Shown here piece after piece: positions 56,321 to 60,468 of a stretch of DNA of 64,000 nt. Under the pieces are notes generated by a model. The model did no database searches. It worked only from the letters and a program-made list of their open reading frames with translations, and was not told the origin of the DNA. Source of the DNA: Escherichia coli (GTDB lineage: Bacteria; Pseudomonadota; Gammaproteobacteria; Enterobacterales; Enterobacteriaceae). Made by a program: the position numbers and the translations under genes. Positions within the stretch are counted from its first letter, which is position 1, and every line of letters starts with the position of its first letter. The stretch lies in NCBI RefSeq assembly GCF_003018255.1, contig NZ_CP027440.1; one strand, 5' to 3'.

Positions 56321-57184
56321 GTGTGGGCGCTAACTGCGGATGCTGATTTTCTGGCGCAGCGGGGGCAAGGACAGGTTGAACAGGTCTTTGCCAGAGCGGT
56401 AAATATCGCACTTCCGGCCCGCCAGCAGTTGCTGACGCTGCTTTGTGAAGAGTACGACAATGCGCCAAACAGTTGTCGGTTGGCACTCACTCACTTTGAT
56501 GGTCTGTTCCGGCATGGTGATAAGGTTCAGTTTGACGATCAAGGCATTACGGTTGGTCAACATCTTCATATAGAGATGAGTCGTTGTCGGCGTTGGCTGT
56601 CCCCAACCTTGCAAATGGCCGCTGTGAATTTTCACCTTATCGCCTGGCAACAGTGGCATGACATTATTCATCAGCACCTGGGGGAAAATGAAACCCTGTT
56701 TAATTATTGCGGCGATAATCCGTTTTATCAGGCGTTAAATAAAGAATTACATATTAAACGACGGGCAGTTATTCAGGCCGTAAACGATAAACAAAATATC
56801 GCCTCAGCAGTCGCCAGTATGATGGGCTTAGGGATTGGCCTTACGCCATCAGCCGACGATTATTTAACAGGTCTGGCGCTTATTTTATTTATTTCCGGAC
56901 ATCCGGCGGAAAAATACAAAGAGGAATTTTATCTCGGTCTGCAATGCGGCAGAAATAATACCACGTTATTAAGTGCCATAACGCTGGAAGCCGCATTACA
57001 ACAACGCTGCCGGGAAAATATTCATCGTTTTATTCATAACATTATTTATGACATCCCTGGGAACGCAACTCAGGCAATAGAAAAAATTAAACATATTGGC
57101 TCCAGTTCCGGCTGCGACATGCTGTATGGCATGGCCGATGGTTGTGCGCTGAGCCAAACCTACGGAGGGAATTATGTCAGTTAA
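56321..57184 (+). CDS. yahE: Uncharacterised protein YahE
   Basis: 287-aa ORF; overlaps yahF start. Confidence 0.8.
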   Translation: MWALTADADFLAQRGQGQVEQVFARAVNIALPARQQLLTLLCEEYDNAPNSCRLALTHFDGLFRHGDKVQFDDQGITVGQHLHIEMSRCRRWLSPTLQMAAVNFHLIAWQQWHDIIHQHLGENETLFNYCGDNPFYQALNKELHIKRRAVIQAVNDKQNIASAVASMMGLGIGLTPSADDYLTGLALILFISGHPAEKYKEEFYLGLQCGRNNTTLLSAITLEAALQQRCRENIHRFIHNIIYDIPGNATQAIEKIKHIGSSSGCDMLYGMADGCALSQTYGGNYVS

Positions 57185-58721
57185 AATAGTCATTAAACCG
57201 AATACCTATTTTGATTCTGTCTCGCTGATGTCTATCTCCACGCGTGCAAATAAACTCGACGGCGTCGAGCAGGCATTTGTGGCGATGGCGACCGAAATGA
57301 ACAAAGGCGTGCTGAGGAATTTAGGACTGCTGACGCCGGAACTGGAGCAGGCGAAAAACGGTGACCTGATGATTGTCATCAATGGTAAATCGGGTGCGGA
57401 CAACGAGCAGTTGCTGGTGGAGATTGAAGAACTGTTCAACAGCAAAGCGCAAAGTGGCTCGCACGAGGCGCGTTACGCCACTATTGCCAGCGCCAAAAAG
57501 CATATCCCGGAAAGTAACCTGGCGGTGATTTCGGTCAACGGTCTGTTTGCCGCTCGCGAAGCGCGTCAGGCGCTGCAAAACGATCTTAACGTGATGCTGT
57601 TTTCCGATAACGTCTCAGTTGAAGATGAACTGGCGCTCAAACAGTTGGCCCACGAAAAAGGGCTGCTGATGATGGGGCCAGACTGCGGTACGGCGATTAT
57701 CAACGGCGCGGCGCTCTGCTTTGGTAACGCCGTGCGTCGCGGCAACATCGGCATTGTTGGCGCATCCGGCACCGGTAGCCAGGAACTGAGCGTCCGCATT
57801 CATGAATTTGGCGGCGGCGTTTCGCAACTGATCGGCACCGGCGGGCGGGACCTGAGCGAGAAAATCGGCGGCCTGATGATGCTCGACGCTATCGGGATGC
57901 TGGAAAACGATCCGCAAACTGAAATCATTGTGCTTATCTCCAAACCGCCAGCGCCTGCGGTGGCCCGCAAAGTGCTGGAACGCGCACGCGCCTGCCGTAA
58001 GCCAGTGGTAGTCTGCTTCCTCGGTCGTGGCGAAACGCCAGTGGATGAGCAGGGGCTACAGTTTGCTCGCGGCACCAAAGAAGCGGCACTAAAAGCGGTG
58101 ATGCTCTCCGGTATGAAACAAGAACATCTCGACTTGCATACCCTGAACCAGCCGTTGATTGCGGATGTGCGTGCGCGTATGCAACCGCAGCAGAAATACA
58201 TTCGTGGCCTGTTCTGCGGCGGCACGCTGTGTGACGAAACCATGTTTGCGGTGATGGAAAAACATGGCGATGTCTACAGCAACATTCAGCCCGATCCTGA
58301 ATTCCGCCTGCAAGATATCAACCGCAGCGTCAAACATACCTTCCTCGACTTTGGCGATGACGATTTTACCAACGGCAAGCCGCATCCAATGATTGACCCG
58401 ACCAACCGCATCAGCCGGTTGATCGAAGAAGCGCGCGATCCAGAAGTGGCGGTGATCGTGATGGATTTTGTGCTCGGGTTTGGATCGCATGAAGATCCGG
58501 TCGGTTCCACCATCGAGGCGATCAAAGAGGCGAAAGCGATCGCCGCTGCCGAAGGGCGCGAGTTGATCATTCTCGCCTATGTGCTGGGTACCGATCTCGA
58601 TACGCCATCGTTAGAACAACAAAGCCAGATGTTGCTTGATGCCGGAGTGATTCTGGCCAGCAGCAGCACCAATACCGGATTGCTGGCGCGTGAATTTATC
58701 TGCAAAGGGGAGGAAGCCTGA
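57174..58721 (+). CDS. yahF: FdrA-like protein YahF (CoA-binding, succinyl-CoA synthetase alpha-like fold)
   Basis: 515-aa ORF. Confidence 0.85.
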   Translation: MSVKIVIKPNTYFDSVSLMSISTRANKLDGVEQAFVAMATEMNKGVLRNLGLLTPELEQAKNGDLMIVINGKSGADNEQLLVEIEELFNSKAQSGSHEARYATIASAKKHIPESNLAVISVNGLFAAREARQALQNDLNVMLFSDNVSVEDELALKQLAHEKGLLMMGPDCGTAIINGAALCFGNAVRRGNIGIVGASGTGSQELSVRIHEFGGGVSQLIGTGGRDLSEKIGGLMMLDAIGMLENDPQTEIIVLISKPPAPAVARKVLERARACRKPVVVCFLGRGETPVDEQGLQFARGTKEAALKAVMLSGMKQEHLDLHTLNQPLIADVRARMQPQQKYIRGLFCGGTLCDETMFAVMEKHGDVYSNIQPDPEFRLQDINRSVKHTFLDFGDDDFTNGKPHPMIDPTNRISRLIEEARDPEVAVIVMDFVLGFGSHEDPVGSTIEAIKEAKAIAAAEGRELIILAYVLGTDLDTPSLEQQSQMLLDAGVILASSSTNTGLLAREFICKGEEA

Positions 58722-60139
58722 TGAGCCCGTCACTGTTTAGCCAACCGTTGAACGTTATTAACGTCGGTATCGCCATGTTTAGCGATGATCTGAAAAAGCA
58801 GCATGTAGAAGTGACCCAACTCGACTGGACGCCGCCGGGGCAGGGCAATATGCAGGTGGTGCAGGCGCTGGACAACATTGCCGATTCCCCGCTGGCGGAC
58901 AAAATCGCCGCCGCTAACCAGCAGGCGCTGGAGCGCATTATCCAGTCGCATCCGGTGCTGATTGGTTTTGATCAGGCGATTAACGTGGTGCCGGGTATGA
59001 CGCCGAAAACCATTCTTCACGCCGGGCCGCCGATCACCTGGGAAAAAATGTGTGGCGCGATGAAAGGCGCGGTCACCGGAGCGCTGGTGTTCGAAGGGCT
59101 GGCGAAAGATCTCGATGAGGCGGCTGAACTGGCTGCCTCCGGGGAGATCACCTTCTCGCCGTGCCACGAGCACGACTGCGTGGGTTCGATGGCGGGTGTT
59201 ACCTCGGCCTCGATGTTTATGCACATCGTAAAAAACAAAACCTACGGCAACATCGCTTACACCAATATGAGCGAGCAGATGGCGAAGATTTTGCGTATGG
59301 GCGCTAACGACCAGAGCGTGATTGACCGCCTCAACTGGATGCGCGATGTGCAGGGGCCCATACTGCGCGACGCGATGAAAATTATCGGCGAAATCGATCT
59401 GCGCTTAATGCTGGCGCAAGCGCTGCATATGGGCGATGAGTGCCATAACCGCAATAACGCCGGGACGACGCTGCTGATTCAGGCGCTGACGCCAGGGATT
59501 ATTCAGGCGGGCTATTCCGTCGAACAACAGCGGGAAGTGTTTGAGTTTGTCGCCAGCAGCGACTACTTCTCCGGCCCGACGTGGATGGCGATGTGTAAAG
59601 CGGCGATGGATGCGGCGCACGGCATTGAATACAGCACTGTGGTCACCACCATGGCGCGTAACGGCGTCGAGTTCGGCCTGCGGGTCAGCGGCCTGCCGGG
59701 GCAATGGTTTACCGGCCCGGCGCAGCAGGTGATCGGCCCGATGTTTGCCGGTTATAAGCCGGAAGATTCGGGGCTGGATATCGGCGACAGCGCCATCACT
59801 GAAACCTACGGCATTGGCGGATTTGCCATGGCGACCGCGCCTGCAATCGTTGCGCTGGTGGGCGGCACGGTGGAAGAGGCTATCGATTTCTCCCGCCAGA
59901 TGCGTGAAATCACTCTCGGTGAAAACCCCAACGTCACCATTCCGCTGCTCGGTTTTATGGGGGTGCCGACGGCAATCGACATCACCCGCGTGGGCAGTAG
60001 CGGCATTCTGCCGGTGATCAACACCGCCATCGCCCATAAAGATGCGGGCGTCGGCATGATTGGCGCGGGCATTGTGCATCCACCATTCGCCTGCTTCGAG
60101 AAAGCCATTCTTGGCTGGTGCGAACGTTACGGCGTCTGA
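58721..60139 (+). CDS. yahG: DUF1116 protein YahG
   Basis: 472-aa ORF; 1-nt overlap with yahF stop. Confidence 0.85.
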   Translation: MSPSLFSQPLNVINVGIAMFSDDLKKQHVEVTQLDWTPPGQGNMQVVQALDNIADSPLADKIAAANQQALERIIQSHPVLIGFDQAINVVPGMTPKTILHAGPPITWEKMCGAMKGAVTGALVFEGLAKDLDEAAELAASGEITFSPCHEHDCVGSMAGVTSASMFMHIVKNKTYGNIAYTNMSEQMAKILRMGANDQSVIDRLNWMRDVQGPILRDAMKIIGEIDLRLMLAQALHMGDECHNRNNAGTTLLIQALTPGIIQAGYSVEQQREVFEFVASSDYFSGPTWMAMCKAAMDAAHGIEYSTVVTTMARNGVEFGLRVSGLPGQWFTGPAQQVIGPMFAGYKPEDSGLDIGDSAITETYGIGGFAMATAPAIVALVGGTVEEAIDFSRQMREITLGENPNVTIPLLGFMGVPTAIDITRVGSSGILPVINTAIAHKDAGVGMIGAGIVHPPFACFEKAILGWCERYGV

Positions 60140-60149
60140 GTTACATGTT

Positions 60150-60422
60150 TATGCCGGATGCGACATGAATGTCTTATCCGGCCTACGAATGGCGCGGAAA
60201 TCTGTAGGCCTGATAAGCGTGGCGCTTCAGGCATTGGCCACCACAGCCGGATGCGACGTGAACGCCTTATCCGGCCTACGAATGGCACGGAAATCTGTAG
60301 GCCTGATAAGCGTAGCGCATCAGGCATTGGTCACCACAGCCGGATGCGGCGTGAACGCCTTATCCGGCCTACGAGTGGCGCAAGAATCTGTAGGCCTGAT
60401 AAGCGTAGCGCATCAGGCAGTC
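60150..60422. repeat. REP/BIME array: three tandem units of about 95 bp, each with a pair of inverted REP sequences
   Basis: gccggatgcgacgtgaacgccttatccggcctac ... tgtaggcctgataagcgtagcgcatcaggc repeated three times between yahG and yahI. Confidence 0.8.
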
Positions 60423-60468
60423 TGGCGTTGGTCATAACCCCATCACCCTCTGTAGCGGACATAAAAAT

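Follow-up and report, generated by a model that had tools for sequence, protein, structure and literature searches.

The window analysed here is a stretch of 64,000 nucleotides from Escherichia coli (contig NZ_CP027440.1, assembly GCF_003018255.1), and the feature under study occupies the spacer between yahG and yahI. These genes belong to a cluster, fdrA-yahG-yahI-yahJ, that is read from one strand throughout; fdrA and yahG overlap by 1 nt, yahI and yahJ are separated by 9 nt, and the 329-bp yahG-yahI spacer, 266 bp of which are taken up by a repeat array, is the cluster's sole long gap (Table 1). Family scans placed yahG in Pfam PF06545, which is now named for AllG, a subunit of oxamate carbamoyltransferase, and identified yahI as a carbamate kinase. 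The wider cluster at 57174-62811, with fdrA upstream of yahG and an amidohydrolase after yahI, looks paralogous to the oxamate carbamoyltransferase and carbamate kinase genes of the allantoin pathway. E. coli JNE23-011 matches the window at 100% identity across the kilobase that contains the array, and its annotation lists, on the same strand, fdrA, yahG (YlbE/DUF1116 family), a 90-aa 'hypothetical protein' in the array, yahI and yahJ; only seven records are at least 99% identical to this 1-kb region. The coding flanks in yahG and yahI also match 120 plasmid places at approximately 97% identity, e.g. on the 185-kb plasmid NZ_CP141845.1, and part of the cluster is thus carried on plasmids as well.

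A sequence-only reading of the window had described three tandem, near-identical units of about 95 bp between 60150 and 60422. The tandem units were recovered both by Tandem Repeats Finder (60153-60419, period 93, 2.9 copies, 92% matches, no indels, score 450) and by a gap-free repeat search, which placed the copies at 60153-60245, 60246-60338 and 60339-60431, while the exact values proved to be 93 bp for the unit and 60153-60418 for the array. Copies 2 and 3 share 92% and 77% identity with copy 1, the latter value being low because the final 13 nt of copy 3 already belong to the unique flank. Each unit consists of a 34-nt Y REP, a 17-nt linker, an inverted 29-nt Z2 REP and a 13-nt linker, and the units follow one another head-to-tail. 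The REPs therefore lie in inverted pairs, as had been proposed, with Y on the plus and Z2 on the minus strand. They were called with Y and Z2 consensus strings, for which corroboration comes from the K-12 and O157 arrays, where exact matches occur, and from the Rfam model of another REP array, with whose consensus they agree. When aligned with these strings, the REPs of all units matched, where shuffled sequence is expected to give no match, and GTAG or CTAC is present in each of the six. The four mismatches of the first Y REP compensate one another: at positions 11/20 and 13/18 of the inner stem, G-C pairs are replaced by A-T pairs.

Table 1. Features in and around the yahG-yahI spacer (positions in the window)
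Feature	Position	Strand	Remarks
yahG (AllG/DUF1116 family)	58721..60139	+	Upstream gene; TGA stop 60137-60139
Open frame through array	60060..60437	+	PGAP 60165-60437 'hypothetical protein'; frame and start position as K-12 yahH b0322
BIME-2 array, whole	60153..60418	.	Three 93-bp units, six REPs; the strain's allele of K-12 REP23
Y REP no. 1	60153..60186	+	4 mismatches to consensus; CTAC at plus-strand 3' end
Second open frame through array	60158..60472	+	yahG frame; ends at the TGA of an ATGA overlapping the yahI start
17-nt linker	60187..60203	.	Lies between Y1 and Z2-1, at their GTAG ends; same linker at 60280-60296 and 60373-60389
Z2 REP no. 1	60204..60232	-	2 mismatches; plus strand reads GTAG...
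Rfam RF02564 (naRNA4) match	60207..60276	-	60.4 bits (gathering score 59.5); Z2-1, 13-nt linker and Y2
13-nt inter-unit linker	60233..60245	.	Again at 60326-60338
Y REP no. 2	60246..60279	+	1 mismatch (G to A, inner stem, uncompensated)
Z2 REP no. 2	60297..60325	-	Exact consensus
Rfam RF02564 (naRNA4) match	60300..60369	-	71.8 bits; Z2-2, 13-nt linker and Y3
Y REP no. 3	60339..60372	+	Exact consensus
Z2 REP no. 3	60390..60418	-	Exact consensus
yahI (carbamate kinase family)	60469..61419	+	Downstream gene; starts 50 nt past the last REP

Within the 64-kb window the array is the only locus of its kind that was found: the Y and Z2 consensus strings, with up to three mismatches allowed, matched nowhere outside it (none expected in shuffled sequence), the 14-nt REP tail including GTAG had no other site at up to two mismatches, and an Rfam scan of the window returned no further REP locus. 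Elsewhere in the window, a tRNA-Thr(CGT) gene (10140-10215, plus strand) lies about 1.2 kb upstream of an Rfam IS009 match (11456-11656, plus strand, 197 bits). This region may mark the border of an island that entered at the tRNA, and such an island might account for the single REP locus.

Class and allelic range of the array

BIME-2 elements have been defined as z2 and y REPs in inverse orientation, joined by short linkers and present in multiple tandem copies, while BIME-1 elements pair z1 and y REPs around a long L linker, often with an IHF site, and occur as single copies (PMC3333891, after Bachellier et al.). By this definition the yahG-yahI array is a BIME-2: it contains Y and Z2 REPs in alternating orientation, its linkers are 17 and 13 nt long, its conserved copies stand in tandem, its REPs carry the GTAG motif, its site is extragenic and its copy number varies between strains. 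What it shares with BIME-1 (RIB/RIP, IHF-binding) is a pair of inverted REPs, including Y, at an extragenic site; it differs in having Z2 and no match to Z1, short linkers in place of a long L linker with an IHF site, and tandem rather than single copies. IHF binding, which had been suggested for the array, was rejected, since the IHF consensus WATCAANNNNTTR has no match in it and the IHF site by definition belongs to the L linker of BIME-1 (PMC3333891). The units are not confined to this locus, as they match REPs elsewhere in the genome; a 1-kb query containing the array had matches in 5425 of the 5426 complete E. coli genomes, with a median of at least 35 places in each, which shows the REP family to be dispersed.

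The array is an ordinary feature, already described both for its class and for this locus. In K-12 and EHEC the yahG-yahI element has been named REP23 (PMC4765031 among other sources), and the K-12 gene yahH has been described in the literature as "filled" with REP23 sites. The K-12 spacer measures 421 bp and holds four Y/Z2 units, and that of O157 measures 514 bp and holds five. Locus and flanks, the Y and Z2 content, the 17/13-nt linkers, the right-hand flank and the distance of 13 nt from the yahG stop codon (from the end of the TGA at 60139 to the first paired base of Y1 at 60153 in the window) are common to these elements and to ours. The window differs in having three units, in its degenerate first unit, where the Y stem carries the double compensation and the Z2 is a variant, and in that its three periods all measure 93 bp, so that it is without an internal frame shift. 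The degenerate first unit is shared with the three-unit allele of CFT073, the second unit of which is different, a pattern that points to exchange between units.

Tandem copy number that differs between strains at one locus is regarded as a hallmark of BIME-2 (PMC3333891), and variation across E. coli, which we had been led to expect, was found to extend from 0 to 5 units. A search with the two coding flanks joined without the spacer located both flanks in one place in 4980 of 5426 genomes, and units were counted in a systematic sample of 57 genomes, with one example of each class read (eight alleles in all). In this sample 11 genomes had no unit (spacer 94-95 bp), 22 had one (142-153 bp), 4 had three (328-329 bp), 16 had four (421-422 bp) and 4 had five (514 bp); two units (235 bp) were absent from the sample and were seen in NCTC9064. 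No unit or a single one was thus the state of 33 of the 57, and the REP-free spacer segment occurs in 655 of the 5426 genomes (approximately 12%). The REP-free allele of E. coli Z0117EC0032 (L005:601-695) is 95 nt long; on its left side, 58 nt of unrelated sequence include a small hairpin (CCCTTCTCCCTTCTGGGGAGAGGGG). The idea that this segment is another dispersed repeat was rejected, as it is single-copy and found at one place per genome. One-unit alleles differ in their left junction, which is either 13 nt long (CTTACATGTTTAT, L006:601-742) or 23 nt long (CCTGCAAAGTACGCGTTGTCTCT, L007:601-752); the first REP accordingly stands 13 or 23 nt past the yahG stop, on either side of a reported 15-nt translational limit.

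Folding of the array and its likely action on the operon message

Read as plus-strand RNA, the three Y REPs are predicted to form hairpins of -17.9 (Y1, z -6.2), -14.1 (Y2) and -21.3 kcal/mol (Y3), and the Z2 REPs hairpins of about -12 kcal/mol (Z2-1, -12.0 kcal/mol), so that six hairpins of between -11.5 and -21.3 kcal/mol would stand between yahG and yahI. The array as a whole folds with z = -3.9 relative to shuffles; adjacent Y and Z2 REPs can pair with each other instead, and the minus strand folds equally well. Among 19 units from seven alleles, variable columns are found at 14 of 30 linker positions and at 9 of 63 REP positions. The conserved stems, together with the compensatory changes in Y1, indicate that the palindrome is maintained, which mobility or conversion would explain too.

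Neither a sigma-70-like promoter nor a terminator composed of a hairpin and a T run was found on the plus strand between 59600 and 61000, and none of the REPs of the array is followed by a T run; an intrinsic (Rho-independent) terminator and an internal yahI promoter were rejected on these grounds. We infer co-transcription, as we do every functional effect considered below: the array is probably transcribed within the operon message, since it lies inside the co-directional fdrA-yahG/yahI-yahJ cluster, and with no promoter or terminator match on that strand yahI would most simply be reached by transcription across the array.

The best experimental model for what such an array could do is REP325, in the yjdM-yjdN spacer of K-12 (L010:7743-8399). 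It is composed of six 100-bp units of Y and Z1-type REPs with 13/17-nt linkers, a make-up that under the published definitions makes it an atypical BIME and not a BIME-2, and its first REP stands 14 nt past the stop codon of yjdM. According to a 2026 preprint, REP325 stabilizes the upstream yjdM mRNA and cuts downstream yjdN about 8-10 fold, thus acting as a stabilizer and a partial Rho-dependent attenuator; the effect depends partly on Rho, and does so only with the full array, as fragments of 2-4 hairpins were not Rho-sensitive. The same preprint reports that the ratio of upstream to downstream expression is raised genome-wide in tandem gene pairs containing REPs, with a wide spread, and that REP effects are strongly context-dependent. 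The yahG-yahI array resembles REP325 in that tandem inverted REP pairs with 13- and 17-nt linkers lie between co-directional genes and begin 13-14 nt past a stop codon. Against a close analogy, the array has the opposite orientation relative to transcription, Z2 in place of Z1-type REPs, 93-bp in place of 100-bp units, and three units with six hairpins where REP325 has six units with twelve.

With these reservations, the reading that we favour, with moderate confidence, is that of a non-coding, three-unit BIME-2 allele of REP23 that is probably carried on the operon message, where its hairpins would stabilize fdrA-yahG, attenuate yahI-yahJ and perhaps damp translation of yahG. By analogy with REP325, the six REPs, folded into stable hairpins on the operon RNA, would block 3'-to-5' exonucleases and so stabilize the upstream fdrA-yahG segment, and would partly attenuate transcription into yahI-yahJ, in part via Rho, giving a higher upstream/downstream ratio. 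Since the first hairpin begins 13 nt past the yahG stop, it may also hinder terminating ribosomes and in this way damp yahG translation: REPs less than 16 nt from a stop codon have been reported to down-regulate translation, with stalling of ribosomes and cleavage of the mRNA at the stop (Liang, Rudd and Deutscher 2015, cited after PMC12306157), a distance within which the array falls at 13 nt, while in the L007-type allele it is 23 nt. At the DNA level, gyrase binding is plausible, with the Y REPs as candidate cleavage sites. Unit number would change by slippage or by unequal recombination between 93-bp units, perhaps with the aid of a REP-associated transposase, and we propose that strains consequently differ in the strength of these effects.

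Whatever effect the array has must be dispensable, and the array may be neutral, given that about 12% of genomes are without the element and most of those sampled have 0 or 1 unit. A serious rival to a selected role, possible in our view if doubtful, is therefore that the array is a neutral or selfish non-autonomous REP element in a tolerant site, the copy number of which drifts through slippage, unequal crossing-over or a REP-associated transposase; incidental effects on expression would be compatible with it. The range of 0-5 units, with the REP-free and one-unit states as frequent as the census indicates, the two different left junctions among one-unit alleles and the variable tandem copy number typical of BIME-2 (PMC3333891) are all as expected for such an element. 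It accounts less readily for REP stems that are far better conserved than the linkers, for a Y1 stem with two compensatory changes, and for the biased expression of REP-containing tandem pairs genome-wide reported in the 2026 preprint.

We consider it unlikely that the array acts mainly as DNA, as a site of gyrase binding and cleavage that buffers local topology between two segments of transcription. Topo-Seq has found gyrase cleavage sites to be over-represented in BIME-2, mostly in Y REPs, with a signal that rises when transcription is blocked, and the three Y REPs of the array, two of them at or near consensus, are potential cleavage sites. Only a subset of BIME-2 loci is cleaved, however, most intervals of table DS3 show no cleavage, and 12% of genomes have no copy of the element. 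The Topo-Seq supplements contain no entries for yahG, yahH, yahI or REP23, and table DS3 leaves the stretch from 258 kb to 374 kb, in the coordinates of the strain used, without a BIME-2 interval. The DY330 background carries the lacU169 deletion, by which the yah region is removed, so that the yahG-yahI locus was probably not assayable.

Open frames and naRNA4 matches in the repeat

Two overlapping frames, 60060..60437 and 60158..60472, had been dismissed as spurious in the sequence-only reading. Both exist exactly as given there, and that they are by-products of a stop-free repeat is the better-supported view, one contested by RefSeq annotation and by ribosome footprints (PMC4765031). As the period equals 31 codons, two plus-strand frames would stay open at any copy number, yielding the repeat peptides VNALSGLRMA and RMRRERLIRPTNG. 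In the window and in CFT073, both with 3 x 93-bp arrays, the yahG frame is open past its TGA through the array to the ATGA at the yahI start; the same open frame follows yahG in the 95-nt REP-free allele, and in K-12 and O157 it is broken by a 1-nt linker deletion.

It is very improbable, as we see it, that one of these frames encodes a real repeat protein, YahH, even beside roles of the array as DNA or RNA. The frames are open, RefSeq annotates yahH or a hypothetical protein in the array, and in EHEC the array ORF has ribosome footprints (RPKM 56, coverage 0.61), for which translation and a 'triple function' were proposed (PMC4765031); yet footprints on a multi-copy, strongly structured repeat would be ambiguous. 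The RefSeq calls are themselves inconsistent, ranging from 'hypothetical protein' through 'protein YahH' with two starts to a pseudogene fragment (60165-60437; L002:2037-2333; L004:6770-7090; L009:620-874). The frame also differs between strains: K-12 b0322 and the PGAP yahH are in the +1 frame relative to yahG, whereas EHEC yahH/X002 begins in the yahG frame and shifts at a 1-nt linker deletion (PMC4765031), single-base linker deletions being changes that shift the frame inside arrays. Scans of both array translations against Pfam and NCBIfam found no family above threshold; an NCBIfam SidA match to the array ORF (32.1 bits, cut-off 35, no significant stretch) was dropped as compositional and biased. 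Variable sites are spread 6/8/9 over the codon positions in either open frame, with no third-position excess among what are only 23 sites, and the linkers vary while the stems co-vary. Moreover, the candidate ATG codons at 60158 and 60165 both lie within the Y1 hairpin, and none of the examined alleles with 0, 1 or 2 units has the ORF, the first two of these classes making up more than half of the genomes sampled.

Still less probable is a variant in which the frames would be translated and would thereby suppress Rho-dependent attenuation, with the 3 x 93-bp allele feeding ribosomes to the yahI ATGA, and in which gain or loss of units and 1-nt linker indels would constitute a heritable switch of yahI-yahJ expression.

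The two above-threshold Rfam matches raise the question of naRNA4, an RNA that originates from REP325 and that a 2015 report on this array proposed to bind HU and condense the nucleoid. The second hairpin of the RF02564 model is Z1-type and 7 nt longer than Z2, and the array is without the Y and Z1 hairpin pair of the model; a match to RF02564 therefore means a REP pair and is not a gene call, and we retained the naRNA4 label only as a sign of REP sequence. The least probable reading of all is that the yahG-yahI array gives rise to nucleoid-associated RNAs of the naRNA4 kind, which would bind HU and aid chromosome condensation, as the matches that reach the gathering score and invite it lie on the minus strand, antisense to the operon, the operon-sense plus strand reaches 55.9 and 43.7 bits against the required 59.5, and the 2026 preprint, co-authored by the 2015 report's senior author, found REP325/naRNA4 to have no effect on nucleoid volume or REP-REP contacts.

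Annotation and use of the locus

The finding matters little beyond correct annotation. The region 60153-60418 is best labelled as a repeat region (BIME-2, REP23 allele), and calls of a 'hypothetical protein' or YahH within it are suspect. The locus is nonetheless a clean natural series, in which 0 to 5 units lie between the same two genes, and this series could be used to quantify how the upstream/downstream expression ratio of an operon responds to REP hairpin number, a question raised by the 2026 REP325 preprint.
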